DNA of 64,000 bases, from positions 32,001-96,000 of IMG/VR virus record IMGVR_UViG_3300027917_000018, one strand, 5' to 3'. This stretch comes from a virus (taxonomy: Duplodnaviria > Caudoviricetes). This document shows positions 209-62,800 of this stretch, piece after piece. A program made the translations under genes and the position numbers. Each line of letters opens with the position of its first letter. Positions within the stretch are counted from its first letter, which is position 1. The notes beneath the pieces were generated by a model. The model was not told the DNA's origin. It searched no databases and saw only the letters and a list, made by a program, of their open reading frames with translations.

Positions 209-2524
209 ATGGCAGCACCAGTACCAGCCGGAGCCGGACCGATTGGTGGAGCCACCGCCGGGCTGAGCGGCCTGGCCAGCGCCGCTACCCAGGTCGGCCA
301 GTCGGCCAATCAAGCACAGCAGGACATCGAGAGCCTCAATGCCTCGCTTTTTTCGCTTGGCAGGATTGCGGTCGCCGGAGGTCTCTTCAAGCTGGGCGAA
401 GCGCTCGTGGGGTACGCCAAAGACTACCTGATTTTTGGCCAAAGACAGGCGCGGGCGCTCCAGGAACAGCTTGTTGAACAGCGGCAGCAGGCGGCGCTCA
501 TGGAGCTTCAAGCTCAGTCCGCCCGCGATATTTTGGAGGCCCTAAGCCAGCTTCCCGGCATTGGAGTCGAGCAAGTTGCCGCGCAGCAAGAGCTGGTACA
601 GCAAGCCGAGCAGCTGGCGGAGAGCACGAGGAAGTCCGCTGAATTTGCTGAGTTCAAATTGGAGGCGCATCAGCGCCTGCGAGGCCCACTGACCTTGCTC
701 ACCACTACGGCAGGAATCCTCCTCGGCACGTACAGGTCCTTGCTGGATTACGCCGTTGCGTTGAACAAGAGTCTGGAGCAGGCCAATACCTCCTACCGGG
801 TTCGCAATGAGATTCTCACGCGGGGCATGGAAGTCATGCGGCGGTCCGGCGTTGCCCAGGGCGAGGTCGCCGAGGCGGCGCGGGCCTTGGTCAATTACCG
901 CCTGGAGGAGAGCGGCAGCCTCGGCACCAACCTGGATTTGATGACGAAGATGAACGTCGCCTTGGGCGTTCACTACGAGACCAGCGCCAAGGTCGCTACC
1001 GTTTACGAAAGAACGCTCGGGCGGGGCGTGCAGATGGTGGCTGACACCGTCGCCCGGATCGCCGCCAATACGGCCATCGCCGCCGAGAAGGCCGCCGATT
1101 ACGCCTTCCACGTGGCCAGGGCAGTGCGGCTTCTTGGTCCGGGCATGCGGATGGAAAGCGAACGGATCACGGAAGTCATCGCGAACTTGGCTGGCCGCAT
1201 TCAGGAGCTTGGCGGCGACTCCGAAACCGTCCTGAACCTGTTCCAGCAGATGACCTCTGGCACCGGCATGGGGCTTTGGCTCCGGGGTCGCGCCGGGGTC
1301 ACCGCTGCCGAACTGGGCACAGCGGGCGGTGCTGAGGCGGGATTGAGGGGTGTGGCGCGGGCAATCCGCGAGCTGGTTACGGCGGACCCTGAGAGGCAGA
1401 CCGAACTGTACCTGTTCCAGCTGACCGCTGCTGGCGAGGCGTTCGGCATGACCGCGCACCAAATTCGTGACTTGTTGGACGCAGTCGATGCCTTAAACAA
1501 GCCGCTTTCGCAACAAGCCACGTTGGAGAAGGCGTTTCGGGAGCAGCAGGCGCAAACGGCCAAGTCCGTTGAGCAGCTTCGGAATGCCTGGAGAGCCCTG
1601 ATCAATCAGGCTTTCATGCCAATCTATCCGGTTATCCGATCGATCATTGACGCCGTTACGGGCCTCCTGCGGGAGCTGACCGGCCATCCTGGAGCGCTCA
1701 AGCTTGCGATGGTGGGATTGACGGCAGCTGCCCTCGGAGCGGGCGTTGCCGTCGTTAATCTGACCAGGGCTCTCGTAGGCTTGATGACCCAAACAACGTT
1801 CGGCCAAGGTGCTCTGGCAGCGGCTAGGGGAACTGTTGGAGGCCGCCTGGCTGTGGGCGGTCTTGGCTGGTTGGCCACCGCCATTCGGGTCTCTGCGCCG
1901 TACGTTTTGCCGCTGATCGGCGGGTATCTGATTGGCAGCATTTTTCGCGAGTCGCTTATCCAGTGGCCGATCTTCAAGCAGTTCGACAAGCTTACGGAAC
2001 TCGTTGCGCGCTGGTATTACGGCTGGAAGGAAACCGCCACACCCAGCTATACCCCGACTCAAAGACTCGGAGCAAAAAGCGGTATTGGTCTCTTGACGGA
2101 GGCGGCGATGGCTGGAGTCAAAGGTGATGTCGAAGCTCTTCGGGCCAGGTATTACGAGGCGACGAAGATTGGCGTTGATCCGACCAAAGGCGCGGCTTGG
2201 ATCGAAGCCGTCATGCCAAAAATGATGGCTGGGTATCAGCAACAGGAGCGCCTGAGTCGGCTGTCTCTGCCCAGCGCGGAGTCGGTCGCGGCTGAGAACC
2301 GCATCGTGGAAGGCTTCAAGCGGGCTTTGGCGGAAGTCGCTGGAGACGAACTGAAGAGCATTGGCGCACGAGGTCAAAAGAGCTTCGAGCTGAACCAGAA
2401 AATGTTGAGGTTACGGCAGGAGGGCGAGGGCCTGTACGACAAAGAGCTGTTTGAAAACACATTCAGGGAACTTGGCACGGGCGCTGGCGTAGGCTCATAC
2501 TCAGTGCCCGGCTTTGGAATTTAG
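209..2524 (+). CDS. Tail tape measure protein
   Basis: 771 aa, Ala/Gly/Leu-rich helical and coiled-coil sequence with a hydrophobic stretch near residues 500-580; upstream of a tube-like/baseplate gene. Confidence 0.7.
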   Translation: MAAPVPAGAGPIGGATAGLSGLASAATQVGQSANQAQQDIESLNASLFSLGRIAVAGGLFKLGEALVGYAKDYLIFGQRQARALQEQLVEQRQQAALMELQAQSARDILEALSQLPGIGVEQVAAQQELVQQAEQLAESTRKSAEFAEFKLEAHQRLRGPLTLLTTTAGILLGTYRSLLDYAVALNKSLEQANTSYRVRNEILTRGMEVMRRSGVAQGEVAEAARALVNYRLEESGSLGTNLDLMTKMNVALGVHYETSAKVATVYERTLGRGVQMVADTVARIAANTAIAAEKAADYAFHVARAVRLLGPGMRMESERITEVIANLAGRIQELGGDSETVLNLFQQMTSGTGMGLWLRGRAGVTAAELGTAGGAEAGLRGVARAIRELVTADPERQTELYLFQLTAAGEAFGMTAHQIRDLLDAVDALNKPLSQQATLEKAFREQQAQTAKSVEQLRNAWRALINQAFMPIYPVIRSIIDAVTGLLRELTGHPGALKLAMVGLTAAALGAGVAVVNLTRALVGLMTQTTFGQGALAAARGTVGGRLAVGGLGWLATAIRVSAPYVLPLIGGYLIGSIFRESLIQWPIFKQFDKLTELVARWYYGWKETATPSYTPTQRLGAKSGIGLLTEAAMAGVKGDVEALRARYYEATKIGVDPTKGAAWIEAVMPKMMAGYQQQERLSRLSLPSAESVAAENRIVEGFKRALAEVAGDELKSIGARGQKSFELNQKMLRLRQEGEGLYDKELFENTFRELGTGAGVGSYSVPGFGI

Positions 2525-2527
2525 CGT

Positions 2528-3337
2528 ATGCCGCAAAGTGTCAGACGCCAAAAGAGCTACCCGTACATCGGGCGCTTGATCGTCCTGGAGGGGCCGGGCG
2601 ACAAGCCGCTTTTGGACGGCAACTACACTGGCGAGTACACGTCGGCGGTGCAGATCAATTTTCCGGCGATGCCGGACACCATCGAGCTGGCGCGCCGGGC
2701 CAATTACACGGTGCGCACGAGCCCGGCCTTCCCGGACGGCATCCACCAATACATGGGCACGGAGGTTCTGAACATTCCGATCAGCTTCGAGTTGCACCAT
2801 GCCGATCGTGAGTACTGTCCAAAGGGTCCCTACACGCTGCTGCAACTTGCGGCGGAGCTGGAGTCCCTGATTCTGCCGTTCGGTAGCGACGCGATCCAGA
2901 CCGAGGTTGGCGAAACCTTCCAGTCCGAAAGGACCAACGCCGCCGTTAATCAGAGTGCGGCCCAACCCACTCAGGAACTGGGTGGCAACGTTATCAACGG
3001 CGAGTCGCTGTACCCGCCGCCGGTTTGCTACCTCCAGCTCATGCTGACCGAGTCGACGGGGCCGGGCATCGCCTGTCGCGGCTACGTTAACGACATCAAT
3101 GTCAAGCTTCACGGACCTTACATGCGCGGGCCGGGGATGGCGTTCAATTTGCCCACCAAAGGCACGTTCAGCTTCACCTTCGTTCACAATCCCGGCCACC
3201 AGAACGCCTTTCCGGCGTCCCGTTACAGCACGGTCTCAGTCAAGCAGGCGTACGCGCAGACGGTGCGCCGGAGGCTCTTCAACACGGTCGGGATTCAGAA
3301 TCCTGCGAACTACAAGGGCTTCAACGAAAGCCCTTAG
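2528..3337 (+). CDS. Tail tube-like baseplate junction protein (gp48/CIS-tube-like)
   Basis: 269 aa after the tape measure; FPAMPDTIEL...IPISFEL...CRGYVNDINV pattern typical of tube-fold baseplate proteins. Confidence 0.45.
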   Translation: MPQSVRRQKSYPYIGRLIVLEGPGDKPLLDGNYTGEYTSAVQINFPAMPDTIELARRANYTVRTSPAFPDGIHQYMGTEVLNIPISFELHHADREYCPKGPYTLLQLAAELESLILPFGSDAIQTEVGETFQSERTNAAVNQSAAQPTQELGGNVINGESLYPPPVCYLQLMLTESTGPGIACRGYVNDINVKLHGPYMRGPGMAFNLPTKGTFSFTFVHNPGHQNAFPASRYSTVSVKQAYAQTVRRRLFNTVGIQNPANYKGFNESP

Positions 3338-5280: not shown

Positions 5281-5304
5281 ACTGCGTAGAACGTAGTTAA
5301 GGCG
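5281..5304. promoter_or_regulatory. Divergent junction with back-to-back GTTCTA (minus) and TAGTTA (plus) motifs
   Basis: 24-nt gap ACTGCGTAGAACGTAGTTAAGGCG between two start codons; motifs at 5287-5292 and 5294-5299. Confidence 0.6.
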
Positions 5305-6060: not shown

Positions 6061-6063
6061 GCC

Positions 6064-7230: not shown

Positions 7231-7257
7231 CCGGACGTAAACGAAGCTGAACTTGTT

Positions 7258-9013: not shown

Positions 9014-9023
9014 AACTTAACTA

Positions 9024-9323: not shown

Positions 9324-9342
9324 CTTGTTGTAGTTACCTTGA

Positions 9343-9894: not shown

Positions 9895-10232
9895 TGTGGG
9901 AAAACTTGATCACCGATGAGGTCAGCCGGGCCGGAACTTCCGTTCTTGGAGATGCCTTGACGCCACCGGCTCGGGAGGCCGTGGCCCGCAATCTCTATGA
10001 CTGGCTGGTCCGGGCACCGAAGGCCAGCGTCGACAACTTGGAGGCCAGGCTGGAGCAAATGCGTAAACGAATTGACGCAATGACCGCTGGCTTGGTTGTC
10101 GGTTTGGACAACGGCGAACTCGTAGTTACTGCGACGGGCGACGCCGAGACGGTGTTGCGAATGTTTGAGCTGGGGACGGACTGGTTTCCGCCAGCTCCTG
10201 TAGAAGACATGATCTTTGCCGTGCTGGCGTAA
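9894..10232 (+). CDS. Hypothetical (neck region) protein
   Basis: 112 aa, start overlaps the upstream stop. Confidence 0.55.
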   Translation: MWENLITDEVSRAGTSVLGDALTPPAREAVARNLYDWLVRAPKASVDNLEARLEQMRKRIDAMTAGLVVGLDNGELVVTATGDAETVLRMFELGTDWFPPAPVEDMIFAVLA

Positions 10233-10247
10233 CGTAATTAAGAGCGT

Positions 10248-10511: not shown

Positions 10512-10543
10512 TCCTAGCCGTAGCGCCCGCCGTCCGCTTTTGC

Positions 10544-12032: not shown

Positions 12033-12200
12033 ATGTGTGTTGGACGTTTCGATGAATGGCGCGCCATTGCTAACGGTGAGAATCGCGGCGGAGCGGTTGC
12101 AGTCGCGCAAGCTGGGCTGCCCTCCGCAAGGCGGCAAAAAGCCCCGAGCATTGATTCGTTTACGCCGAAAGCAGATTCCGACGCGCCCGACGCAACGTAG
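12033..12200 (+). CDS. Possible 55-aa ORF (or structured RNA) between terminator and sheath genes
   Basis: ATG 7 nt after TAGTTA (12020-12025); its stop lies inside the next TAGTTA; peptide not obviously protein-like. Confidence 0.25.
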   Translation: MCVGRFDEWRAIANGENRGGAVAVAQAGLPSARRQKAPSIDSFTPKADSDAPDAT

Positions 12201-12218
12201 TTAAAGCGAGAAACGAGT

Positions 12219-14429
12219 ATGGCAACGATTCGCACGAAAACATTTCCGGGCGTCTATACGCAAATCATCGACCGGAGCTATCTGCTACCGCAGACAAGCC
12301 GGTTCCGTGGCGGCCTGATTGGCGTGGCGCGTAAAGGCCCGTTTGACACGCCAACCTCAGTGCGGTCGCTCCAGGAATTCCAGCGGCTGTTTGGCCAACC
12401 TCTGGTTGGGAACTATTTCCTGGCCAATGCGGTCGCCATTCTGTCCGACCTCACGGACGGCATGAAGGTGGTCCGTGTCGGGTTCCGGTCCGACAGCCTG
12501 CCGGGTGCGACCTTCACGGCTTCGGCGCTTTCCGTCACTGGGACGGTTACGCCCTACGCCAAGGGGTCGGTGCTCGATCCGGCGCTGTGGAGCGGGGACG
12601 TTTACGTCACCGTCAAGCAGGCTGGGCTGGCGCAGACTGTCAACCAGGTTGTGACCTCGGTCGGCAGCATCGGCCCGGACAGCGCCCTGGTTTCGTTTAC
12701 GGACGCCGACGCCATCAAGGCTCTCTACACCAACGCGACGGTCGAGTACTCGATCGGCAACCCGCACGCCAACGAGGCTCAGGGCCTGCTTTACGCCTAC
12801 ACCTACGGCTCCAACAGCGGCGATCCGTGGGATGCCCCGCTTTACACGGGCTCCTACGTGGTGACCTGCTCGGGCGATAAGGGCGACTACGAGATTCAGC
12901 TGACCCACCCGAGCACCTATTCGCTTTTCGCCGTTGGTGACCTGCTCAAGATCAGCCAAACCGGCAAGAACGACACCCAGGAAGTCAGGGTCAAGCAGGC
13001 GCTCCCCGATGGGCGCGTGTTGCTGGAAACCACCGATTTGCCGGGCAAGGGCTACCAAGCCCTGGCGCTTCAGGACAGCTACACGGCTGCCTACGTTTAC
13101 CGGAAAACCGGCTCCATCTCCTACATCAACCTTGAGGCGGCTTCGGCGGGTGACTGGGCCAACAGTGGCGACATCACCGCCGGGCTCTTCGTTAAGGTGC
13201 GCCCCGGCGGCAAGGCCAACACCAAGAAGTTCGAGGTTTACGAGGACGGGGCCTTGGTCGAGACCATCGACAACCTCTACAACGGCAGCGGCACCAATTC
13301 GTGGTCGGGCCGGATCAACGGCAACAGCCAGTACATCAGCGTCGTCAGCGTGGCCACGTCCGGGACGATGAATTACCTCCCGGCCAATTACAGCTATGGC
13401 TACGAGGCCGGGGCCTATCTGATCAACTCCGGGTACAACAACTCGGGCGGCAGCTTCAGTGAAGGCTACAACGGCGAGGCCGCCACGGCGGAGGACTTCA
13501 TTGGACGCTACGACCCGACGACGGATCGGTACACCGGCATCCAGTCCTTCATCGATACGCCCGAGGCGCGGGTCGACATCATGTGCTGCCCCGGCATCAC
13601 CGACGGCGGAAGCTACGATCCGCTCGGCGGCGACACCAGCGGCCTCCACCGCCGGATGTATGAAGTCTGCAACCGGATCAATGCCCTGGCCATCATCGAC
13701 GTTCCTCCGGCGCTCAATGCTCGGCAGGCCATCGACTGGCACAATGGCGATGGCCTCTACAGCGGGCGTGGCCGGATCGACAGCTACAACATCAGCTGTT
13801 TCTGGAACTGGTTCACCATTTCCGACCCGTTCACCGGGGAGGACAAGACGGTGCCGCCCACCTTGGGCGCTCTGCGATGTTTGGCCTTCACGTTCGACCG
13901 CGACAAGCCGTGGTATGTGGCGGCGGGCGACCAGCGCGGCATCATCCCCGAGGCCAAGTACGTCGAGTTCGAGCACGTGTCCGACGACACCAAGCAGTCG
14001 ATGTACGGCAACGGGCAGTCCATCAACGGCATCTTCCTCGATCGGGGACAGATCAAGCTGTGGGGCGAGCGGACGATGCAGGTGGCCGAGAGCAAGCTCT
14101 CCGTCAACCACAACGTTATCCTCGTCAACTATGTGGTCTACAACCTGTCGGAGATTGGCCGCCGGTTCATCTTCGAGCCCAACGATCCCGAGCTGCTGGT
14201 GCGGGTCCGCCTGGCCTTCGCCCAGTTCCTCGACAACGTCAAGACGGAGCGCGGCATCGAGGAATACGTGCTGGTCATTGACGACACCAACAACTCGGCG
14301 GACACGCGGAACCGCCGCGAGGTCATTGTTGACCTGGCTATTGTCCCGACCGATTCGGTCGAGCGCATCTACATCACCGCCACGGTGCGCGAAAGCGGCG
14401 CGGTGCTTGATGAACTGAACGCTGAGTAA
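12219..14429 (+). CDS. Tail sheath protein
   Basis: N-terminal FPGVYTQIID and C-terminal WYVAAGDQRG...FIFEPND...GIEEYVLVIDDTNN...ERIYI sheath motifs. Confidence 0.95.
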   Translation: MATIRTKTFPGVYTQIIDRSYLLPQTSRFRGGLIGVARKGPFDTPTSVRSLQEFQRLFGQPLVGNYFLANAVAILSDLTDGMKVVRVGFRSDSLPGATFTASALSVTGTVTPYAKGSVLDPALWSGDVYVTVKQAGLAQTVNQVVTSVGSIGPDSALVSFTDADAIKALYTNATVEYSIGNPHANEAQGLLYAYTYGSNSGDPWDAPLYTGSYVVTCSGDKGDYEIQLTHPSTYSLFAVGDLLKISQTGKNDTQEVRVKQALPDGRVLLETTDLPGKGYQALALQDSYTAAYVYRKTGSISYINLEAASAGDWANSGDITAGLFVKVRPGGKANTKKFEVYEDGALVETIDNLYNGSGTNSWSGRINGNSQYISVVSVATSGTMNYLPANYSYGYEAGAYLINSGYNNSGGSFSEGYNGEAATAEDFIGRYDPTTDRYTGIQSFIDTPEARVDIMCCPGITDGGSYDPLGGDTSGLHRRMYEVCNRINALAIIDVPPALNARQAIDWHNGDGLYSGRGRIDSYNISCFWNWFTISDPFTGEDKTVPPTLGALRCLAFTFDRDKPWYVAAGDQRGIIPEAKYVEFEHVSDDTKQSMYGNGQSINGIFLDRGQIKLWGERTMQVAESKLSVNHNVILVNYVVYNLSEIGRRFIFEPNDPELLVRVRLAFAQFLDNVKTERGIEEYVLVIDDTNNSADTRNRREVIVDLAIVPTDSVERIYITATVRESGAVLDELNAE

Positions 14430-25370: not shown

Positions 25371-25958
25371 ATGGAGCAGACGATGGGAATGCTCTGCTTT
25401 CCCAGGGCCACCCATCTGGCGCATTACCTTCTTCAGACGGCCACGGTTCCAGGAGCGGTGGCTGAATTTGGCTGCCACCAGGGCCGTACGGCGGCCTTTA
25501 TGACGGCTCTGACCAAGAAGCACGTTTACGTTTACGATAGCTTTGCCGGGCTGCCGCCACCGTCGGAGCATGACAGGCCATCGGAGGTCTTCCACGAGGG
25601 CGCGATGGCTATAAGCCCGCAAGAGCTGGTAGACCTATTCAAGAGACTCGGGCTGCGCACACCGATCATTGAGCCCGGCTTCTTCAAGGACCTCCAGCCC
25701 CACCAGTTGCCCAAGGAAATCGCTTTTGCCCACTTGGACGGCGACTTCTACGAAAGCATTGCGGGGCCGCTGTACGTGGTCTGGCCGAGGCTGTCGCCCG
25801 GAGGCTACATCGTGGTCGACGATTGGGACTGGGACCAGCTACCGGGCGTCACGGACGCGGTCAAGGCGTGGTCGAAAGATATAGGGATCAAGCCGGAGGT
25901 TCAGTACGGCACGGACGGGGCAGGATGCCACCAGGCGGTGCTGCACAAACCTAGTTAG
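25371..25958 (+). CDS. TylF/MycF-family sugar O-methyltransferase, copy 2
   Basis: EFGCHQGRT, VYDSFAGLP, FAHLDGDFY, LSPGGYIVVDDW; start likely MEQTMG at 25371. Confidence 0.85.
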   Translation: MEQTMGMLCFPRATHLAHYLLQTATVPGAVAEFGCHQGRTAAFMTALTKKHVYVYDSFAGLPPPSEHDRPSEVFHEGAMAISPQELVDLFKRLGLRTPIIEPGFFKDLQPHQLPKEIAFAHLDGDFYESIAGPLYVVWPRLSPGGYIVVDDWDWDQLPGVTDAVKAWSKDIGIKPEVQYGTDGAGCHQAVLHKPS

Positions 25959-27852: not shown

Positions 27853-30800
27853 GTGGTAACGCTCACGCTTAACGGCGCTCCAGCACCAACAAGCTACGCT
27901 CTAGGGTCCGTTTACACGCTTCTGGCGCTGGTTGACGCGCAGGAGCCGCTTTCGGTTGAATGGTCGGTTGCCCGCCAGGGCGAGCCGCCCATCGCCGGTA
28001 CCGGTCCCATTCGTTTTGAGCCGGTCGCCGCCGAGACTCACTATCTTCACGTCGCTGCCGTTGGCCAGGACGGTGTCCTCCAGCAAACCGTTTTCCAGCT
28101 TCAGGTCGTCGCTGCCGGGGCTTCTGCCATGTCGCCCACGATCCAGTGGTCGACGACCAGCCCCGCCATCCGCCAGACAGTTGTGGCAACCATTTCGGCG
28201 GCCAATCCCAGCACTGGGTCACGGCGTCCGCCGCGCAACATCGCCTGGACAGTCTACCTGAATGGCACACCCATCCTGGGCGGTGAGGGAGCCCAAACCG
28301 GCTTTCCGATCCTCTATCCTGGCGTTTACCGGCTCGTGGCAACGCTTGTGGACGAGGGAGGCAATTCGGCCACGGCGGACAGCTCGATCGTGGTTCCGGG
28401 TGGTTTTGAGCTTCAGACCGCCGTTGTGCCAAAACAGCCCACTGGGACTCTGTACTACTTGGGCAGCGTTTATTCTGCCACGGTCGAGGGCTACGCACAG
28501 CTGGCCACCGAGCTGCCTTACCTTGTCATTAGCGCCAACAGCGCGGTCCACCTGCTGCCGGGCACGACGCATGTCATCGCCGAAGTTGAGGAAGGCGGCG
28601 TTGTTCAAGATGAAGTCGTGCTCAGGTCCAGGCTGGGAAACTGGTCCCTGGTTGGCGGCCCAGGCGGCTTGACCACTGAGTCCCTGTTTTACGATTACGT
28701 CCCGGCAGTGCCGCTGCCCGCCCCGCACGACCGCCTGTTCCGCTACACGCTCGACCAATGGAAAGTGGGCGGCACTTCCGTTTCCGACTATCGGTTTCGG
28801 GTCCGGTTCAAGTGCTACCGCGAGGGCCAGAAGCTTTACGAGTACAGCGCCTGCCCGTACGCCAACTACCCAGGCGGTGAGGCGCTTCGCGAAAAGCGGA
28901 TGGTGGCGTTGATCACGAACGTCGATTTCAGGCTGGATGCCGAAAGCCCGGACAACCGCCTCGGTTCGACGGACACGATCACGTACACGACACCCAATCA
29001 GATCACGCTGGAAGGCAACTTTACGCCGGACGGTGCGCCCTACGGTGTCGCCTACCGCGAGGAAGACCACGGGTTCACGGCGCAGAACATCATCGCCAAC
29101 TACGAGGCCGCCGGGCACCCGGACATCAAAACCCACGCTGTTTACGGAATACCGGGCGTCCGGCCCGCCCTGCTGGACTTCACACAGCCTGGCCTGCCAA
29201 GGATCATTCAGTACGCCAAGCGCTTGCACGGTAAGCTGGTGGTCTACATGGCGGGCGGAGGCGTGTCCTACGACACGGTCATTTGGGCTCGAATTTATAC
29301 CGGCAAGTCGCCGGGTTACCAGGTGGTCCGTCTGCGCTGCGCCGACGTGCTCTACAATGGCTCCTTGGAGCGCTACGTGAAAGTTGCCGAAGCGGACATT
29401 GACCTCAGCGACTTCGAGTTCGGCAAAGTCGGCTTGGCCATTGATTTGACGCTGGATGAGGCCGAGGCGCACACGACGCCCTACTATCGCACCGAGGATA
29501 CCGACGATGCTTGGGAGACGGAGGAGGGCGGCTTTTTCTGGCAAGTGGAAGAGTCGGGCACCGACGTAAATTACCAGCCGCCTGAAATTGCGCCGGAAAG
29601 GGTCTACGCGACCTCGGGCAGCCAGGCCGTTCACTACGAGGGAGCCTGCTACTATAGGCCGGTTCCCGTGGCGGTCTTCGACGGCACCCACGCCGTCGCG
29701 GGCACAGTCATCGAGAGCTGTGCCGATCCCGTTTGCGGCGACCGTGGCGTTTACTGCTACACCGACGGAACGAATTTTGCCCAAGTCATTCAGCCGCTGG
29801 ATCACCCCGCGCCCTACTTGGCGTTTGCCAGCGACCAGGCTCATTGTTGGTACGACCCGTACTTCGTTGCCATTGCCGGGGACGGGACCGTGGCGATCAA
29901 CGAGCCCTACCTGCCGTATTCGGGGACAAGCGGCTGCGGCATAGGTTACGCTTACGCCAGCTGCGGATCACTCGCCGCCATCGCCGTCATTTACCCGGCG
30001 GCGGCCTCACCACACAGCTTTGTGGCCTACGGCAGCAACTGCTACGCGCTGAGTGGCAGCGTCGCGGACCTGCGCCCTTACGAGACTGTGGCTTTGGTGG
30101 CGGACGTGACTGCCGTAGCGAGCTGCGATGACGTAGCCTGTACGGGCAGCGATGCCTCGGGTGACTCGGCCTGGTACCTCGACCAGCACGGCCAGCGGGT
30201 CCAGGTCTACTTCCCGCATTTGAATCAGGGAATTCCCAGCTACGGGGCGGCACAGGAGAGGATGAGCCCCGGCTATGGGAGGACGCCGCCGGGCCGCCTC
30301 TACTACAATTCCTGGGCGCAGCCGATCTGGCCCATAATGACGGCGCAGGAGGCCGCCACGGTGGACTTCGTAATGACCCCGCTGGGCTGGACCCGGAAGC
30401 TTTACGTGCGCCGTGGCACTACCGTTACCGAGTACTCTTATGGCCTTGGCACGGTGCGCAAACGCATCGATTTGCAAGCCGGGGACCACGTCTTTCTTCA
30501 GTTCGGCTCCAGGTCGACCAATCTGGAAGGCTACGTGGACTACGCCAAGCGCGTAACGCTGCCCGCGTATTACGACAGCGCAGTCTTGGACACCGGTACG
30601 GCCTCCTCAATCAGGGCTCTTGGCTTCTGCGGCTTCTCCCAGGTCGAGGATTACGTTTTCTTCGGCACGCTGCCGGTAGAAACCGCCATGTCCCTGCCCA
30701 ATCCCGACAGTATCGTCACTGTCACTGGAAGCGGAGCGGAGGAGCAGCTTCTCGTCAGAACTTTTGCCTACGGCGATCGGTACTACCCGCTGTCCTGGCC

Positions 30801-31269
30801 AGCTTACGGCGGCGAGGTCCTCAACATGCCCGTGACCTTCAAATTTTACGCCGGGCGGAACATCGCGGGGCGGCATGGTGAAATGGATGTCTGGCTCGAC
30901 CTGGATCAGAGCCTTCCCGGATTCCTCAAAGTCTCGCGCTATCACGTTTTGACCGCCGATGCGGGCCAATATCGCGTCACGGCGCAAATAGGCGACATCA
31001 ACCGGCGCGGTTTGCGAGTTTCCTCCAGCACCGAGGCGAATGAGCTGCTCTTGCCGCGTGTCTACGCAACGACAGAAGGGCAAACGATCGTGGTCGTTGG
31101 CGGTGGCACCGAGATTTACCACGATGGAAATGTTTACGCCGTAGTTGGAACTGACACAGGCATCTCGACCCAAGTCTACACAGCTCAGAGCGTATTTAGT
31201 GGTGGTGCCTGGACCACTGCGGATGGTTCGGCGTGGCTGACATCAGGAACGTTGCCTTGGCTCTCATGA
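27853..31269 (+). CDS. Large virion structural protein with N-terminal PKD/Ig-like domains
   Basis: 1138 aa, Y/G/T/A-rich beta composition, PGVYRLVATLVDEGG PKD-like motif, Cys-rich middle; TAGTTA 4 nt upstream. Confidence 0.6.
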   Translation: MVTLTLNGAPAPTSYALGSVYTLLALVDAQEPLSVEWSVARQGEPPIAGTGPIRFEPVAAETHYLHVAAVGQDGVLQQTVFQLQVVAAGASAMSPTIQWSTTSPAIRQTVVATISAANPSTGSRRPPRNIAWTVYLNGTPILGGEGAQTGFPILYPGVYRLVATLVDEGGNSATADSSIVVPGGFELQTAVVPKQPTGTLYYLGSVYSATVEGYAQLATELPYLVISANSAVHLLPGTTHVIAEVEEGGVVQDEVVLRSRLGNWSLVGGPGGLTTESLFYDYVPAVPLPAPHDRLFRYTLDQWKVGGTSVSDYRFRVRFKCYREGQKLYEYSACPYANYPGGEALREKRMVALITNVDFRLDAESPDNRLGSTDTITYTTPNQITLEGNFTPDGAPYGVAYREEDHGFTAQNIIANYEAAGHPDIKTHAVYGIPGVRPALLDFTQPGLPRIIQYAKRLHGKLVVYMAGGGVSYDTVIWARIYTGKSPGYQVVRLRCADVLYNGSLERYVKVAEADIDLSDFEFGKVGLAIDLTLDEAEAHTTPYYRTEDTDDAWETEEGGFFWQVEESGTDVNYQPPEIAPERVYATSGSQAVHYEGACYYRPVPVAVFDGTHAVAGTVIESCADPVCGDRGVYCYTDGTNFAQVIQPLDHPAPYLAFASDQAHCWYDPYFVAIAGDGTVAINEPYLPYSGTSGCGIGYAYASCGSLAAIAVIYPAAASPHSFVAYGSNCYALSGSVADLRPYETVALVADVTAVASCDDVACTGSDASGDSAWYLDQHGQRVQVYFPHLNQGIPSYGAAQERMSPGYGRTPPGRLYYNSWAQPIWPIMTAQEAATVDFVMTPLGWTRKLYVRRGTTVTEYSYGLGTVRKRIDLQAGDHVFLQFGSRSTNLEGYVDYAKRVTLPAYYDSAVLDTGTASSIRALGFCGFSQVEDYVFFGTLPVETAMSLPNPDSIVTVTGSGAEEQLLVRTFAYGDRYYPLSWPAYGGEVLNMPVTFKFYAGRNIAGRHGEMDVWLDLDQSLPGFLKVSRYHVLTADAGQYRVTAQIGDINRRGLRVSSSTEANELLLPRVYATTEGQTIVVVGGGTEIYHDGNVYAVVGTDTGISTQVYTAQSVFSGGAWTTADGSAWLTSGTLPWLS

Positions 31270-35102: not shown

Positions 35103-35474
35103 ATGAATCTGAAGCAGCTGGCTCAGCTGTTGATTGAGGGACCGAATGCTGCCGAGCAGGCTCCTGAAATCGACAAGAAGATCGCGGTTTTCCTCAACCG
35201 CGTGCTGCTGCGGCATTGGAATACGCCCAGTTTCCTCTCCTTCCTCAAAGACGTGGCGATGTTCCCGAAGGACGATGAAAGCGGCCAAGTCGTAATCCAA
35301 TTCGTTTACAATCGCCTGCCCGAGGAAGCGATCCCTTCCCTGGCCCGTTTGCTGGCTTCGCCTTCGGACCCCAAGTACTCGCGGTTTGTCGACAACGGCC
35401 AAGCCTATACCGGCGTTGAGCTGTGCGTTAAGCCGGATGACTTCGGCGGCGAGGAATACGACTACGCTTACTGA
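35103..35474 (+). CDS. Hypothetical protein with LAQLLIE N-terminal tag
   Basis: 123 aa; TAGTTA 4 nt upstream. Confidence 0.6.
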   Translation: MNLKQLAQLLIEGPNAAEQAPEIDKKIAVFLNRVLLRHWNTPSFLSFLKDVAMFPKDDESGQVVIQFVYNRLPEEAIPSLARLLASPSDPKYSRFVDNGQAYTGVELCVKPDDFGGEEYDYAY

Positions 35475-35485
35475 CGTAAACGAAA

Positions 35486-35794
35486 ATGAGCGCGGTCGCA
35501 AAGAGGATCATGGGCACGTACATCGCGGACGCGGCCCTTCCTATTTCTTCCACACGGGCTTGGCTCCAGACTCAGATGCGGCAAGGCGTCCTGCGGGGCG
35601 TCATCGAGAGGTTTGTCCGGGAGCAGCCCGAGGACTTGGACGCAGGCTTGGTGCTCGTGGAAAAAGTGGATGAATCCGTGGTAGTTGGGCGGATTCCGTG
35701 CTACGCCTACGATCACGAGAATCCGCACCCGTTTCGCACGGAAGTCCGGTTTAGCCTGGACTTGGCCAGGCGCGCCTTCACCCGGCTGGTGTAG
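35486..35794 (+). CDS. Hypothetical protein
   Basis: 102 aa, co-directional with 35103. Confidence 0.55.
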   Translation: MSAVAKRIMGTYIADAALPISSTRAWLQTQMRQGVLRGVIERFVREQPEDLDAGLVLVEKVDESVVVGRIPCYAYDHENPHPFRTEVRFSLDLARRAFTRLV

Positions 35795-36029
35795 CCACCG
35801 CCGCCTTGGCCACTTCGACTTCGTAGGTGGTCTTTCGGGCTTTCTCAGTTTTCCAGCGGAGTCGCCCCATCGCGTAGTCCATCGCCAATTTGCGGCACAT
35901 GTCGAACGCGCTGCGCACGCCCTGGATGTCCGTTTTGTCCTGGTCGTAGGCTTTCTCGAAGAGGGCGTACTCTTCAGGGGTTAGCCGGAACGCGACCACT
36001 TTGCTCTTGATGACTTTGCCGTTTGCCAT
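35778..36029 (-). CDS. Small ribbon-helix-helix-like DNA-binding protein
   Basis: KVVAFRLTPEEYALFEKA beta-strand-helix pattern; GTTCTA 6 nt upstream. Confidence 0.55.
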   Translation of the reverse strand: MANGKVIKSKVVAFRLTPEEYALFEKAYDQDKTDIQGVRSAFDMCRKLAMDYAMGRLRWKTEKARKTTYEVEVAKAAVATPAG

Positions 36030-36079: not shown

Positions 36080-37999
36080 ATGGCACAGACCATCGGAACC
36101 AATCTTCTGCGCTACTTGGGCATGGTCGGCTCGACTGGCGTAAACACGGGGCGGCTTGTACCTCCTGCGGCCAGCGCCATCGCCAATCAGTTCCTTTTCA
36201 GGGAATTCGAGGAATCGGGCGCGGTGGCCGACCCCGACATCTGGACCAAGTACAACAGCGTCATGAAGCGTCCGACGACCTTCGACGCGATGCTCCAGCT
36301 GTGGGAAGAAATGGCCGATTGGGACCTGATGCACGCCGCTTTGGTCGAGGTCGTGGATGAGGCGACCGCCGTGGATATTACCAGCCCAGGCGCGATTTGG
36401 TACCAGTGCAACGACAAGGCTTTTGAGGACGAGCTGAACAGCCTGCTGGTCAAGGTGGATGCGGAGACCATCATTCGCAGCCAGGTCTGGCACGTTGCCG
36501 CCGTCGGAAACCACTTTGAGAAGATCGAGTACGCCCCGGTGGAGGGCGTGTTGGGGCTGTCCTTCGTTCATCCGATGGACATGCGGCGGTATTGGCTGGA
36601 GCGGAACCGGAAGTGCATCGGCTTTAAGTGGGCTGGGCACCGCCCGGACAAGGAGCCGGTGTTTGTTGGGCCGGACAACCAGACGCCGGTTGAGCGCGTC
36701 GCGCTTTCCACAGGCCAAAACGTTGAGGAATTGTGGTATCCGTGGGATTTCCTGCACATGCGCCGGATGTACCGGCTGCGCATTTCCGAACACGGCGAGC
36801 CCCTCTTCGCCGAGGCCGAGGGCATCTACAAGAAGCTACGGATCGCCATTGACCAGATGGTGGTTCACCGTGCCCAGGTTCAGCCCGACCGCTACGCCAT
36901 CAACATCGACGTTCAGGAGCAGCCTCCGGCAGAGCAGATGCGCACGGTCCAGCGGTGGAAGCAGCAGCTTCGGGCGAAGCTGGCGTTCGGCCAAACTGGA
37001 AACGTAAACAGTTTGAACGCGCCCACGGACTTCAGCAGCTACTACAACGCCTGGGCGCTGGACACCATCCTCTACGTGGCCCAGCCCAAGGGCTTCAATC
37101 ACGTGGTCAACAAGCTTCAGGGCACGCAGCAAGTCCCTGACGTTTACGATATTGAGCTGCTCACCGACCTTTTCTACAGCATCATCGGCATGCCGCGTTC
37201 CTGGTTTGGCGGCCAAAAGGAGGGCCAGACTTCACCGTCGGGCAAGGCGCTCCTGGCCCAGGACATCCGGTTCCTGCGCAAGATCAAGTCCATTCGAGCG
37301 CCCATCATCCAGGCGTACGTGTGGCTGGCCTACTTCCACGCAGTCCTCAAGGGCAAGGACATCCGGGAGCTGGACATCAAGGTCCTCATGCCGCCCATCG
37401 GGAGCTTGGAGGACCAGATGAAGCTGGAGATGCTCAAGCTCCAAACTGAAGTCCTGTCCGAGCTGGCCGACGTGATGCAGAAGTACAACCTGCCGCAGGA
37501 AGCCTGGGTCGAGACGGTTTTCAAGCGCTACATGCACCTGCCGGATGAGGTCGTGAACATGTTCATCACGGCCATGCCGCTGCCGTCGGAATCCTCCGAT
37601 GTGACGGGCGGCCCGGCGGAAGGCCGCAAGCCCGCGCCCAGGGTTGGAAAGCTCATCCAGGAGGCTGAAGCCCTGGCGGACAAGAATCCCAGGCTGCGCC
37701 AACTGCTGGGTCAGATGCGCGAGGCGCAATGGGGTGTCAATGTCACGGATGTCAACCGGGCCGTGCTCCGCCGCTTCAAGACTCGCGACGATGTCGCCCT
37801 TGCGCCGCAGCTTAAGGAGAACGATCTGATCATCAGTTCCTTTGGCAAGCACCCGCTCGAACTCAAACGCGTAAACGGAAATGGTTCGAGCCAGGGGCGT
37901 ATGTCTTTGACCGAGCAGTTGCAGGAAGGCATCACCCAGGGCGAGCCGGTCGCCCAGCCTAATGGCGGTTGGCGGCAATTCTATCCTGAGAAGTTCTGA
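36080..37999 (+). CDS. Portal protein (T4 gp20-like)
   Basis: EEMADWD...VVDEA, HMRR...HGEPLF...KKLRIAIDQMVVHRA...YAINIDV, DIELLTDLFY motifs; TAGTTA 6 nt upstream. Confidence 0.85.
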   Translation: MAQTIGTNLLRYLGMVGSTGVNTGRLVPPAASAIANQFLFREFEESGAVADPDIWTKYNSVMKRPTTFDAMLQLWEEMADWDLMHAALVEVVDEATAVDITSPGAIWYQCNDKAFEDELNSLLVKVDAETIIRSQVWHVAAVGNHFEKIEYAPVEGVLGLSFVHPMDMRRYWLERNRKCIGFKWAGHRPDKEPVFVGPDNQTPVERVALSTGQNVEELWYPWDFLHMRRMYRLRISEHGEPLFAEAEGIYKKLRIAIDQMVVHRAQVQPDRYAINIDVQEQPPAEQMRTVQRWKQQLRAKLAFGQTGNVNSLNAPTDFSSYYNAWALDTILYVAQPKGFNHVVNKLQGTQQVPDVYDIELLTDLFYSIIGMPRSWFGGQKEGQTSPSGKALLAQDIRFLRKIKSIRAPIIQAYVWLAYFHAVLKGKDIRELDIKVLMPPIGSLEDQMKLEMLKLQTEVLSELADVMQKYNLPQEAWVETVFKRYMHLPDEVVNMFITAMPLPSESSDVTGGPAEGRKPAPRVGKLIQEAEALADKNPRLRQLLGQMREAQWGVNVTDVNRAVLRRFKTRDDVALAPQLKENDLIISSFGKHPLELKRVNGNGSSQGRMSLTEQLQEGITQGEPVAQPNGGWRQFYPEKF

Positions 38000-38748
38000 T
38001 GGCCTTGAGGATTTACGACGCGGGCGGCACGGACATTCTGGCCAACAAGCCAGCGGAGGTCACCTTTCGGATTCCGAGCGGCACCTATGCGGTGGCCGTC
38101 TATGCCGAAATCGTGGAGGATGACCTGTGTCTGCCCTACCGGCTGCTCAAGGCAACGTTGGATTGGAATGACGGAACCCAGCCCGTCTCCTTCCCCGAGA
38201 CGAACTATTCGACCTCGCCTTTAATCGTAAACACTTCTCGCCGACTTGGGTTTGGCGCGTACGCGATCACGCTCATCGTGGAGAACAACCGCCTGCCGAT
38301 CCGTGATTCTGAAAAGATCACGTTCTATGTGAACGTAGAGCCGGTCCAGGCGACGACCGAGCAGACCAAACTGTTGCTCGGGCCGATCTTGCCGAAGGAC
38401 ACGGGATTGCCCAATCGGCAGACGTGGATGTTCGACGTGGAAAACGACATCGCGCTCCTGGCCAGCTCCGTGAAAATGCTGCTGTTGACGACCAAGGGTG
38501 AGCGGGTGATGCAGCCCACCTACGGCACGAACCTGCGGCGCATATTGTTCGAGCTGAACATCGAGAGCGTGGAGTCGATCGTGCAACAGGAAATTTCGAC
38601 CGCCCTTGCCGCCTGGGAGCCTCGGGTGGTGATTCAAAGCCTTGGAATCACCCGGTACCCCAATGAGCGCAAAGTCGAGGTCCTAGCGTCCTTCCTGGCG
38701 AGAACTGCGGCCCAGCCTTTCGAGGTTCAGTTGAGCTTTGGCTCCTGA
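37999..38748 (+). CDS. Baseplate wedge gp25-like protein with extra N-terminal PKD-like domain
   Basis: LLLTTKGERVMQPTYGTNLRRILFE...AAWEPRV gp25 motif. Confidence 0.85.
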   Translation: MALRIYDAGGTDILANKPAEVTFRIPSGTYAVAVYAEIVEDDLCLPYRLLKATLDWNDGTQPVSFPETNYSTSPLIVNTSRRLGFGAYAITLIVENNRLPIRDSEKITFYVNVEPVQATTEQTKLLLGPILPKDTGLPNRQTWMFDVENDIALLASSVKMLLLTTKGERVMQPTYGTNLRRILFELNIESVESIVQQEISTALAAWEPRVVIQSLGITRYPNERKVEVLASFLARTAAQPFEVQLSFGS

Positions 38749-39077
38749 TGGGCAAACGCAACGTAGTCACCCGTCGAGACTTCATCCGCAAGTTCATGGA
38801 CTGCGGATTGACGTTCGACCAGGCGTGCCGCTGCTACACCGGCATGGTCTCGGTGTTCGAGGACGCCGTTGTGCGCGCCGAGAAGATCGGCATTGGCCGC
38901 GTAGGTTGCCTCACGCCCACCATTTGCCCTCCACGAGACGTGGTCATGGGATTTCAGCGCGGAAAAGGCGGCAAGGTCGTTCGGACCAAGCGCCTCTACC
39001 ACTTGGATGAAAGAGTCAAATACCGGTTCACCCTGTACCGGGAATTCAAAACGAAACACGGCCTTCAGGGTAGTTAA
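38748..39077 (+). CDS. HU/IHF-like DNA-binding protein
   Basis: Two N-terminal helices, KIGIGRVGCL beta strand, basic arm; 109 aa. Confidence 0.6.
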   Translation: MGKRNVVTRRDFIRKFMDCGLTFDQACRCYTGMVSVFEDAVVRAEKIGIGRVGCLTPTICPPRDVVMGFQRGKGGKVVRTKRLYHLDERVKYRFTLYREFKTKHGLQGS

Positions 39078-44247: not shown

Positions 44248-44264
44248 TTCGTTTACGAATTTGC

Positions 44265-54337: not shown

Positions 54338-54344
54338 GGACCAG

Positions 54345-54620: not shown

Positions 54621-54664
54621 ACGTTCCTAACTACGGCGTCCAGGTTAACGCGTTCTATCTGGCC
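54621..54664. promoter_or_regulatory. Divergent junction with TAGTTA (minus) and GTTCTA (plus)
   Basis: TAACTA at 54628-54633; GTTCTA at 54652-54657, 7 nt before the 54665 ATG. Confidence 0.55.
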
Positions 54665-55765: not shown

Positions 55766-55769
55766 GGCA

Positions 55770-59103: not shown

Positions 59104-59803
59104 CCAGGCCCTCCGTCTCGCCCGATGCCTGCTGGAGCAGAAGTTCAGCTACAGCACAACGCAGATCAATCTGCCGTCGCCGCTCGACGATTTCGTCGTG
59201 AAGTGGGGCCGGATGCACGTGCAGGACCAGGACCTCTACTACTTTGACGATGGCGGCGGTGGCCGTGAAACCGAACCTCATATCACGGTGCTTTACGGGC
59301 TGCTGGAACCCGAGCCCAGCGATGCGCTCCGGCAAATCGTCCGCCGGACTTCGCCCTTCTGGATTCGGTTGGGGCCGACGAGCCTCTTCGAGAACGAGGA
59401 CTTTGACGTGCTCAAGTTTTCCGTGGTGAGCCCCGACTTGGAGGCGCTCAGCGGTGCGATCCGCCAGGCGTGCCCAAACGAGAACAAGTACCCGAAGTAC
59501 ATCCCGCACGCCACAATAGCCTACGTGAAAAAGGGCCGCGCCAAGCACTTGAACGGGCTGTACCCGTTCGAGGGTTATCCGCCCGTTCCCAGCGAGTTCG
59601 AGGCTAACACGTTGATTTTCAGCGCTGCCGGGGATGACGACGACCCGAAGCGCCGAACAGTGAGGCTTCCATTCAACCGGACGAGGAACGAAAGTCTCAA
59701 TCAGGACAGCCCATTCCAGGGTTTATGGTTCCCGGCAGACGCGTCCGAGCTGGCCAGCAAGATTCTCGGACTCAAGAAACAAGACCCAAAGCAGGTTGTT
59801 TAG
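59096..59803 (+). CDS. 2H phosphoesterase, T4 gp57B/Acb1-like
   Basis: Two HxT motifs (PHITV, PHATI), GRETEPH, YIPH.TIAY pattern. Confidence 0.75.
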   Translation: MNSQALRLARCLLEQKFSYSTTQINLPSPLDDFVVKWGRMHVQDQDLYYFDDGGGGRETEPHITVLYGLLEPEPSDALRQIVRRTSPFWIRLGPTSLFENEDFDVLKFSVVSPDLEALSGAIRQACPNENKYPKYIPHATIAYVKKGRAKHLNGLYPFEGYPPVPSEFEANTLIFSAAGDDDDPKRRTVRLPFNRTRNESLNQDSPFQGLWFPADASELASKILGLKKQDPKQVV

Positions 59804-59836
59804 CACTCATCCTGCGAAGGGGTAGTTAGAGCAGGC

Positions 59837-62800
59837 ATGAGCTTAATCAACCTGACCGAAGATTTCCTCTACGACCGGCTGCCCGAGGGGCTGATCCAGC
59901 TGGACGAGAGGGGTCTGATCCAGGCTGTCCTCGGTGGGTTTCAGGACCGCATCGAGGATTTGCGCTTCTACGCCAAGCGCTTCCAAAGCTTCTACACGCC
60001 GATCCCCGAGGCGCTTTATCGCCCAAACGTCGTGCTGGTCACTTATCGCACCGATCAGGGGCGCGACATCACGCGGAGCATTGACCTGGAGACCGAAACG
60101 CCGCAGGACGGGACGAGCGACCTGCTGGTATGGGCCGCCACGCAGCTGAATGTCGATACGGACCGAGTCTCCAACGCCCGCTATGGCGTGGACCCGCTGC
60201 GAGACATCGAACCCAGCCTGCTCGATTACCTGGCCACCAACGTCGGGGCCGTCCTCTACGCCAGCGCGATCCTCAAGGAGAGCCCGTCGGTTACGACCAG
60301 CACGGGCACACTGACCGCCGCCAATTACGCCTACAGTAAGCTCTTGGAGACGTACTTCCCTCGGCTCAAGTTCAAGGGCACGGCCAAGAGCTTCGAGGCG
60401 CTTGGCAAACTGCTGGGATGGGATGACGTGCGGGTCACGCCGCTTTGGGGCCGGGTGAGCCCACGGCTGCCAAACGATCCAGGCAGCGACGTGAACGACC
60501 CGGACTTCTCGGAGATGCCGGAATTCTGGCCGCAGCAAACGATCGGGCCTTTTTACGACCCGCTCGACCAGGCCGATGGGCCTTTTTACGACTGGACCGG
60601 GACCGCGTCGGCGGGCACTGCGTCAACGAAGTTTTACAGCCAGGTCGTAAACGGATTTCAGCCGTACGTGGAGGTTCTCGTGACCGGGACCGCCTCCGGC
60701 ACGGTCATCCAGCACCCGTCCAGCGGCAGTTACGTGCTGGCCGACGGAGCGCCGCACCAAAAGGCGATGGTCGACGCCGGGGACATTCAGTTCCGGGCGC
60801 TGGGCGAGGGCGAAAGCTACAACGGCGTCACGGTCACCGTCTTCGACGTGGTGGACGCGGACTTGCGGGGCGTCAACGTGGATGGACGCCTTTCCTCGAT
60901 CAAGTACCGGACCAGCTTCTACAACCTGGGTCTGACCATCACATCGGAGAAGGCGCAAGCGGTTTTCGGAACCCTGACGGCCAAGGCCAACAAGGACCTG
61001 GCGGTCGCGCCCCACGAGTACCAGAGCTTTGTCGGCAACCTCACGGCGGTCAGCCCCTACCGGCCATTCACCAGCGGCACCGTGGCCCTGGACACGCTGA
61101 CCACGGACTGGCTGACGCCGTTTACCGGGACGATTTCAACCTACACCGAGCGTCGGGAAGCCGGGTTGGGCGATCGGCAGGAGAATTGGGACGACCTGTC
61201 CCGCGCCGGAGCCCAGGCCACGCAGGCGCTGGAGGAAGTGCGGGCCGCCACCCGGCGTCCTCGCGTCAGCTCCTTCGGCTATCTGCAAAAGGACCAGGTG
61301 GGCTACGCGCCCTATCCGGCGCAGGACTGCCTGTTTACACTTTACGGTTCGATCGTCGCGGGGACGTATCACGGCACGTTCAGCACTTACCCGCTGCCGC
61401 CCTATTACGCCGACGTAGGCTATGTGAGCGGTGGCTTTGTGACCGTTTTCGACGCGGGGACCAATCCGGCCTTTCCAGGCATCGTCACCTATCAAAATTG
61501 CGCGGACGGCGGGACGATCGCGGGTACGATCGGCTACACCGGCACAGGCACGAACTCCTATTTGTTTACGGCGACGGGCACGTGGCCTCAATGGGGTACT
61601 GTTTGTGCGCTGTTCACGGTGACCGACACTGAAGTTGTCCGGCCAGAGCCCTTCAGTTGGTCGACCGGCACGACGGTCCTGGCTGCCTTGGCGGATTACG
61701 GCCTGGCGGGCACGAACCACGATGAGGTCGCCGCGCTCATCAACAGCTGGAGCCCGCAGGCGGTCGTGGCGATGGGCGACAACAACTACCCGGACGGACA
61801 GGCGGCCACGATTGCGGCCAATAACGTCGGGTACGAGAGCTACATTGTCAGCGACCGTTTCTTCCCGGCGATCGGCAACCACGATTACTGCTGCTCCTCG
61901 ACCGGGACCGACCTCACGCCGCACCTGACCTATTTCTTTGACGGCACCGCTCCAGGCGAAGGTGGTCGCTACTACAGCCGCCGGATCGGCAACGTCGAAA
62001 TCTTCTGCCTCAACGCGGGCTGGAACAGCAGCCAGGCAGCGGCAGCCGTCGGCGACCCTTATTACGTGACCACGCAGGAGCCCAGCGGGAACAGCCTGAC
62101 CAGCACCCAGGCGCTCTGGCTCAAGCAGGCCCTCCAGGAATCGACGGCGACGTGGAAAATCGTTTACAGCCATTACCCGCCCTACGCGTCGGAGACCACA
62201 ACGAACAACTATGCGCCCGGTTACCCAAGGCTGCGCTGGCCGTTCAAGGCGTGGGGTGCTGATCTGTACCTGGCCGGGCACGTTCACGCCTACGAGCGGC
62301 TGGAGGTCGATGGCCTGACCTACATTACGTGCGGCGTGGGCGGGGCGGGAAATCGCGTCTTCGACGGTTACGTGTCTCCAGGGAGCGTGGTCCGCTATGC
62401 GCCCTTGGGCGCAACGACCGAGCATGGGGCGCTCCGCATCTTCGCGACCGGCCAAGGGCTCCAGATTGATTTCATTCTCGACACCGGCCAGGTCATCGAC
62501 CGCGTGTTCTTGGACGCCACCAAGAAGTATCTGGCGCGGCCCGAGGACGAGATTGACGACGATGAGGTCTACGGCACCGCCGACATGTACCCGTGGCGGC
62601 GCGACATCGTGGGCAACGGCGAGCTGGTCGAGCAGGACTACTACACGGCTGGCACCAACAACCTGGCCGTCTCGATCCTGGAGAAGACCATGACCGTGCC
62701 GGACCAGACCGGTGCGGAATACGACGTTTACGCGATTAAAGGCCAGGAGCCTTACCGTCTGGTGGCGGCGCTTCGCGCCACGAGTCCGGCCTCGGATTAC

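Follow-up and report, generated by a model that had tools for sequence, protein, structure and literature searches.

Few genome-wide signals are known in cells; hyper-abundant short words such as HIP1, the uptake sequences and Chi belong to them, and what HIP1 does is still debated. The DNA uptake sequences and uptake signal sequences (DUS/USS) of Neisseriaceae and Pasteurellaceae are asymmetric, 9-12 nt long and read by the competence machinery of the cell; their dialects presumably evolve in step with a receptor protein by which the cell tells its own DNA. The stoperators of cluster A mycobacteriophages, which are the sites of the L5 repressor, are asymmetric words of 13-14 bp that number 20-40 per genome, lie mostly in short gaps and are aligned with transcription. 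Here we analyse the hexamer GTTTAC (GTAAAC on the complementary strand), which is dispersed over a stretch of 64,000 nucleotides, hereafter the window, comprising bases 32001-96000 of one 202,975-bp viral contig (59.8% GC; 89% complete by CheckV). The contig encodes a tail sheath and a T4-type portal; its virion genes are T4-type, the phage is uncultured, and its portal protein shares only 19-25% identity with those of phages in culture. In T4 itself, GTTTAC is the early-promoter -35 sequence (-36 to -31; PMC1524935). For HIP1 (GCGATCGC) of cyanobacteria, selection and biased repair are the debated explanations (PMC5861425, PMC4390886). GTWWAC is the site of M.BceJIV, an orphan N6-methyladenine (m6A) methylase of Burkholderiaceae, where it is rare and promoter-associated, with about 700-780 marks per genome over both strands. 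In a limited literature search we found no paper describing this signal, and no description of over-represented GTTTAC in phage.

GTTTAC/GTAAAC occurs 84 times in the window, on both strands and between positions 1001 and 62731, compared with 15.0 +/- 3.8 (largest 25) in the dinucleotide shuffles used as composition control. The original prediction, made from the letters alone, had put roughly 70 sites against about 16 expected; the excess is borne out, and the count was too low. Sixty of the 84 sites conform to YGTTTACR. Exact copies of the 10-mer TTCGTTTACG number 11 (0.10 expected): the nine positions listed earlier are all correct, two further copies at 10062 and 12692 had been missed, and four TTCGTTTACA variants (8713, 24365, 35301 and 54092) and the tandem GTTTACGTTTAC at 25524-25535 lie where they had been placed. 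The window's sites are a subset of 264 in the whole contig, where Markov models of orders 0-2 predict 45-59. GTTTAC is the most over-represented hexamer of the contig and CGTTTACG its most over-represented octamer (96 copies vs 5-7 by Markov). The signal is visible at these lower orders; maximal-order z-scores mask it, since the sub-words are enriched too. The core logo is YGTTTACR, with C (178) or T (51) at -1 and G (150) or A (67) at +1 among the 264 sites, and the best copies read TCGTTTACGA. Density is about 1.3 sites per kb over the contig, or about 0.65 per kb per orientation, and the fold excess is about 2.5-6 depending on the control.

The excess resides mainly in synonymous codon choice. 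Sites were assigned with crude, ORF-based (open reading frame) gene calls made for this analysis (252 genes, 91% coding), which place 224 of the 264 sites (85%) inside genes, 161 in sense and 63 in antisense orientation. Sense sites are read as GTT-TAC (110), G-TTT-AC (42) and xGT-TTA-C (9), antisense sites as GTA-AAC (44) and xGT-AAA-C (19); the sixth frame would hold a stop codon, and every permitted frame is used in both orientations. We permuted codons inside each gene 60 times, a synonymous shuffle that keeps proteins, dipeptides and per-gene codon usage and is conservative in that the shuffled pool retains the codons GTTTAC itself recruited. Such a codon- and dipeptide-preserving shuffle was the check on which the original prediction had staked its claim, and the excess persists: GTTTAC stands at 84 vs 33.6 +/- 3.8 (largest 42) in the window and 264 vs 107.5 +/- ~8 (largest 127, z 20.6) in the genome, and CGTTTACG at 32 vs 7.4 and 96 vs 23.8 (z 21.4), respectively. 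Genome-wide the two remain the top 6-mer and top 8-mer. The dipeptides themselves are not enriched in the genome's gene calls (Val-Tyr 176 vs 160 expected, Val-Asn 163 vs 154). Of the 176 Val-Tyr pairs, 110 are written GTT-TAC where codon usage predicts 31, with GTC-TAC in 40 and GTG-TAC in only 3 (47 expected). Of the 163 Val-Asn pairs, 44 are written GTA-AAC (7 expected), even though no Val codon is rarer than GTA (5.9%); the commonest is GTC. GTT makes up 72% of Val codons before TAC and at most 49% before any other codon; for GTA the share is 35% before AAC and at most 16% elsewhere. The odds ratios toward the word calculated from these codon counts are similar in sense (~7.9) and antisense (~8.2) orientation, so the pull is strand-symmetric. 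Short intergenic gaps (<=250 bp, 8.7 kb in total) hold 19 sites where composition predicts 3.2, a fold excess like that in coding DNA, and the earlier statement that sites fall in both short gaps and genes holds as well. GTTTAC is therefore a strand-symmetric signal at the level of double-stranded DNA, and its general description as a selected, dispersed signal imposed on codon choice is supported by both the codon counts and the synonymous shuffle. The word resembles HIP1 in being a short (pseudo)palindrome that is hyper-abundant in all frames through distorted codon choice and has lineage-specific alternates. It differs in that the excess of HIP1 is 15-300 fold and ours 5-6 fold, and in that HIP1 belongs to cells and GTTTAC to a virus family.

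Along the contig we see neither clustering nor even spacing of GTTTAC. Inter-site gaps are Poisson-like (coefficient of variation, CV, 0.976 vs 0.993 +/- 0.059 for random placement of an equal number of sites), the largest site-free gap of 4.8 kb is as in simulations, and 10-kb bins contain 8-21 sites each. No fixed distance from GTTTAC to TAGTTA, GTTCTT or ACGGATCG was found. What maintains the word chromosome-wide is a weak pressure that acts uniformly at synonymous and non-coding positions. Evenly spaced priming or compaction sites are ruled out by the CV and by a largest gap no different from random. A primase recognition site was also rejected: the sites recognised by T4 and T7 primases are GTT/GTC, the full hexamer with both flanks is required here, and CGTTTA lacking the final C has only 22 copies.

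Using the portal protein (gene 36080-37999, + strand) as a marker, we retrieved 30 related IMG/VR loci at 47-85% identity; for the clades with words other than GTTTAC, the sequence consists of pieces of 4-40 kb. The top hexamer is GTTTAC in L001 and a nine-locus clade, GTATAC in seven loci and GTCTAC/GTAGAC in eight, and two outgroup lineages show no excess of GTTTAC, GTATAC or GTCTAC at either the hexamer or the codon level. In L004, for example, GTATAC has 16 sites in 13 kb (0.5 expected). The preference recurs in codons of the GTTTAC relatives (GTT-TAC 37 vs 9.6, GTA-AAC 20 vs 5.7), the GTATAC relatives (GTA-TAC 36 vs 6.0) and the GTCTAC relatives (GTC-TAC 26 vs 10.9, GTA-GAC 26 vs 8.0), and each clade's word is enriched in both orientations. 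Whole contigs agree: GTTTAC stands at 239 vs 73 in G002 (238 kb) and 111 vs 16 in G003, and GTCTAC at 139 vs 45 in G001 (160 kb). A conserved Val-Tyr of the portal itself (alignment column 369) is encoded by GTTTAC, GTATAC or GTCTAC following clade. On the maximum-likelihood portal tree, the dialects require 5 word changes, compared with a mean of 17 under label shuffling; this phage and L001 (both GTTTAC) are sister to the GTATAC clade, within which L016 (GTCTAC) is nested. Each clade thus has its own dialect, and the third letter has changed repeatedly among T, A and C, with at least 4-5 switches.

The flanks vary as well, being C/G in this phage and T/A in relatives (TTGTTTACAA, TTGTCTACAA; TTGT..ACAA). 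Two-fold symmetry of the arms is common to all clades (here C/T at -1 is mirrored by G/A at +1), and the GTATAC dialect is a perfect palindrome. One clade's word can be absent from another: GTATAC has 0 copies in this phage, where GTCTAC (52) and GTGTAC (42) are present and GTTAAC is depleted, and GTATAC, GTCTAC and GTCGAC have 0 copies in clade B, most of which also lacks GTAC. Such complete loss of a sister clade's word suggests that switches are driven by host restriction. At Val-Tyr positions conserved between this phage and a relative, presence of the word in the one is independent of its presence in the other (observed/expected 5/5.1 for G002, 2/3.2 for G003 and 5/5.4 for G005; small numbers at deep divergence). 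A further difference from HIP1 is that inter-site gaps show no departure from Poisson spacing (long-range periodicity was not tested), and a lack of positional conservation at deep divergence may be another. With the uptake sequences the word shares a density of about one site per kb, both orientations, a location in genes and single-letter dialects in related lineages; we know of no uptake step for a phage genome.

T4, analysed with the same scripts, has 129 GTTTAC sites; in 39, all of them on one strand, TANNNT stands at precisely +24 (counted from the G, leaving about 17 nt to the -10), and 42% of sites fall in the 19% of the genome outside long ORFs. The T4 ORFs show no enrichment of the word (GTT-TAC 6 vs 11.8, GTA-AAC 10 vs 15.8). 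The outgroup contig G004 (the contig of L030; 68% GC) has 47 GTTTAC sites, 27 of them as TTGTTTAC and several in a repeated promoter-like unit: an A-rich/AT-rich stretch that includes the small palindrome GTCATAGAC is followed by TTGTTTACAA and, some 17 nt further, by a CATAAT-like hexamer. The unit is present in 8 or more copies, for instance around 10996, 41644, 55368, 105130, 120785 and 131094. Our phage shares with T4 the identical hexamer and the T4-type virion genes, but 85% of its copies are coding, in both directions and without a -10. TANNNT lies at +24 of only 2 of 264 sites, and the intergenic, co-directional placement of T4-type early promoters is not seen. With no -10 partner, an early or late promoter role in this phage is ruled out. 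In clade B, AT-rich copies (GTTTACNNT) have TTGAC 17 nt upstream or themselves lie upstream of a TTGACA; a position that varies relative to sigma-70-like promoters is what would be expected of an operator. GTTTAC is thus promoter-confined in T4 and the outgroup and spread through coding DNA in the ingroup. Taking polarity from the outgroups, the word looks to have been ancestrally promoter-bound and to have spread genome-wide later, in the ingroup. Together with at least 4 independent one-letter switches, this contrast constitutes a natural experiment, which could be used to find the reader by covariation and to set selection against biased repair.

Two-fold symmetric flanks, one-letter changes of specificity and operator-like placement in relatives are in keeping with a dimeric protein that reads a specific sequence; they agree less well with a monomeric sigma contact, with a single-strand signal or with mutational bias. 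We tentatively favour, as a possible rather than a probable reading, that GTTTAC is the binding word of a two-fold-symmetric phage DNA-binding protein that marks or coats the chromosome. This predicted protein may first have been a regulator sitting on early promoters and may now mark or coat the whole phage chromosome, with telling phage from host DNA, protection and compaction as possible purposes. The protein's specificity and the word would evolve together, and a switch would perhaps be imposed by a new host whose restriction targets the old word. The stoperators offer a likeness, as a dispersed operator word that changes together with its repressor between related phages; here, in contrast, 264 copies of 6-10 bp are orientation-independent, in a phage without sign of lysogeny. 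If a binder of this kind exists, it would favour TCGTTTACGA over the other-dialect forms TCGTATACGA and TCGTCTACGA. A wider version, which we regard as speculative and unlikely, is that large T4-like phages mark themselves: a phage reader and a GTNTAC word of about one per kb would co-evolve in dialects, with about 200 synonymous sites rewritten at each restriction-forced switch, and would serve to discriminate self from host in host-DNA destruction, protection or packaging. Were this so, it would be the viral counterpart of uptake sequences or Chi. The codon counts also show that a word acting at the DNA level can strongly bend phage codon choice, a point of importance when hosts are predicted from codon usage and when recoded phages are designed.

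Several observations weigh against a dimeric binder. To our knowledge, no known phage system needs about one site per kb for such a protein. Poisson spacing (CV 0.98) and the independent occupancy of Val-Tyr positions between clades are each predicted equally well by a neutral biased process; together they fit density selection and neutral biased conversion equally and do not separate the two here. No reader emerged among the candidates examined. The original prediction had named two proteins, an HU-like one encoded at 38748-39077 (+ strand) and a putative ribbon-helix-helix (RHH) protein at 35778-36029 (- strand). The IHF/HU fold of the former is supported: its model (predicted local distance difference test, pLDDT, 88) has IHF, HU, Hbb and pA104R of African swine fever virus (ASFV) as top Foldseek matches, with no Pfam match, and its alignment profile matches HU and SPO1 TF1 weakly. 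Its link to the word is not supported, as no alignment column separates the three dialects and the protein is kept in outgroups without genome-wide excess; it lies two genes past the portal, within the head-gene block, in 19 relatives including outgroups. A canonical HU domain is encoded elsewhere on the contig (14656-14925). In the RHH candidate, which is divergent from the portal gene and kept in every relative examined, two helices come after a V(V/I)SFR(L/I) strand, an RHH-like topology present only in a low-confidence single-sequence model (pLDDT 49). The strand with its putative ribbon residues is identical in L016 (GTCTAC) and L012/L013 (GTATAC), and the protein occurs in outgroups too, so this candidate is not supported as the reader. 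Among 10 proteins around the portal, the only dialect-tracking alignment columns were partial-alignment artefacts. Genes common to G001, G002 and this phage and not found in G004 or T4 number 32; the ten smallest non-structural-looking of these have no Pfam match, and two match PHROG families of unknown function.

The strongest challenge to a chromosome-marking protein comes from motif-directed biased repair or gene conversion, in which a phage or host nuclease, or methylase-linked repair, converts near-cognates into sites without function, as in Elhai's model for HIP1 (PMC4390886). Our analysis leaves this unlikely, though several features agree with it: the pull is uniform and independent of orientation and position, spacing is Poisson, occupancy is independent between clades, only synonymous and non-coding positions are affected while dipeptides are unchanged, and each genome has a second word of its own (here ACGGATCG with 73 copies, in G005 GTACGATC with 23). 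But the repair enzymes one would look for were not encountered. Neither Vsr nor MutH was found in the ingroup (six phage contigs searched), PF01555 and C5 methylases are lacking in G001, G002, G003 and G005, D12 and C5 methylases are lacking on our contig, and no N6/N4 or Dam methylase is conserved, the nearest being a marginal D12 (Dam-type) fragment in G002 (22.8 bits). Furthermore, the main flux would be a GTG->GTT transversion, as the 3 GTG-TAC against 47 expected indicate, unlike known T:G patch repair, and a target base that is T, A or C by clade better fits changed protein specificity than mutational bias. Two metagenome-assembled genomes (MAGs) recovered in a GTDB search, a Flavobacteriales and a Sphingomonadales bin, each hold a related contig, though binning is not proof of a host. 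Neither is enriched (YGTTTACR vs its reversed control 237 vs 340 and 127 vs 400), which also speaks against biased repair and weakly indicates that the phage, rather than its host, is where the excess arises. The excess could also be a side effect of codon usage, of dipeptide content or of the avoidance of restriction sites. Clade B shows how it could arise, with the Val-Tyr alternatives GTATAC, GTCTAC and GTGTAC (which contains GTAC) all at 0 and pushing toward GTT-TAC, and our genome avoids about 35 hexamers. Yet GTCTAC and GTGTAC are tolerated here and GTT-TAC still outnumbers GTC-TAC by 110 to 40; the context use of GTA before AAC, the survival of the excess in the synonymous shuffle and its equal strength in non-coding gaps likewise contradict a by-product, which we reject for this phage as extremely improbable.

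Host RNA polymerase could instead be the reader if -35-only copies served as landing pads, with sigma-70 region 4 (and alpha) sequestering polymerase on phage DNA. The identity of the hexamer to the T4 early-promoter -35 box (PMC1524935), the outgroup's use of TTGTTTACAA as a -35, some 17 nt ahead of a -10-like hexamer, and the similarity of T/A flanks in relatives to T4 promoter flanks all point this way. We nevertheless hold it to be improbable: a -10 accompanies only 2 of 264 sites, the sites face both ways in genes, in clade B, promoters equipped with a TTGACA of their own have the word at -10 or about -50, two-fold flanks are unlike a monomeric sigma contact, and a conserved host sigma poorly explains the T/A/C dialects. 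The original prediction also allowed for a DNA modification target or a Chi-like signal, neither of which is supported. A sequence-specific modification target, dense for protection or strand marking, would be consistent with GTTTAC and GTATAC falling within GTWWAC (M.BceJIV) and GTATAC and GTCTAC within GTMKAC (AccI), with specificity changes that resemble those of restriction-modification families, and with the phage having one N6/N4-type methylase. This enzyme (PF01555, 248 aa, contig 29166-29912) is the only DNA methylase of the contig, but it sits in an island of about 52% GC just before the window (contig 29166-31266; L031:3166-5266), its best solved relative is an N4-cytosine methylase (8s9m; a match to 8urk is weak), and G001, G002, G003 and G005 lack it; we rejected it as the cause. 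This island enzyme in one phage is again a difference from HIP1, in that no cognate methylase is conserved across the phage contigs. A 461-aa orphan gene overlaps or adjoins it and could be a nuclease partner. No TGT/DpdA or ThyA-family genes were found in the ingroup (six phage contigs searched), targets of modification are not normally over-represented, and the phage relies on extreme restriction-site avoidance. Only GTTTAC is enriched here, with GTATAC absent and GTTAAC depleted, so neither the GTWWAC nor the GTMKAC set is matched; GTCTAC lies outside GTWWAC, and no M.BceJIV-like or other matching enzyme is conserved in these phages. We doubt strongly that modification accounts for the word. 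It is very improbable, too, that GTTTAC attenuates a host RecBCD/AddAB-type nuclease entering permuted linear ends, as a Chi-like self signal would. A uniform ~0.65 sites per kb per orientation on both strands is what a headful-packaged linear genome needs, and taxon-specificity is shared with Chi, but symmetric flanks and a palindromic dialect are unexpected of a polar single-strand signal, and the candidate host MAGs are unenriched, which is weak evidence. The word is also AT-rich, unlike the Chi sequences known to us.

Some individual copies stand out by position. The full 12-bp pseudo-palindrome TTCGTTTACGAA at 44248-44259 (+ strand), of a type with only 2 copies in the genome, occupies a 17-nt gap of two co-directional genes, where TAA, the word and, 8 nt on, ATG follow one another. 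TTCGTTTACG at 12155-12164 (+ strand) lies in the gap upstream of the tail-sheath gene, and a GTAGTTA late-promoter-like motif sits between this copy and the gene start at 12219. Two copies on the - strand are also intergenic, one in a 27-nt gap (7236-7245) and one separating genes 35103-35474 and 35510-35794 (35475-35484). The tandem GTTTACGTTTAC (+ strand) is coding, with Val-Tyr-Val-Tyr written as GTT-TAC twice.

The genome contains other unusual words. The second private word ACGGATCG, at 73 copies vs 8 (Markov) and 21.6 (synonymous shuffle) and with 29 copies of TTACGGATCG, is found in every frame, in either orientation and in gaps; no copy overlaps GTTTAC, and relatives have only 2-8 copies. 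About 35 hexamers are nearly absent from the contig (0-2 copies vs 30-430 expected), an avoidance also seen in G001-G005. Among them are CGCGCG, GCCGGC, GGCGCC, CCGCGG, CGGCCG, GGGCCC, CCCGGG, CTGCAG, GAGCTC, CTCGAG, GTGCAC, GACGTC, GGATCC along with the remaining RGATCY words, ATGCAT and GTATAC. Also avoided are CCCCC, CACCTC and CCCAGA, which are not palindromes, and in clade B relatives GTAC and every GTMKAC word are missing too. This pattern suggests hosts with very many restriction systems and heavy restriction pressure, which may drive the dialect switches. In the contig and its relatives, words that contain CCWGG, such as TCCAGG and CCTGGC, exceed Markov expectation 2-3 fold and still reach about 1.4 times their counts in synonymous shuffles. 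The top word by maximal-order Markov is TAGTTA/GTAGTTA (37 vs 8.8), which lies just upstream of virion genes, for example at window positions 12190-12215, and reaches 38 vs 5 in the outgroup G004.

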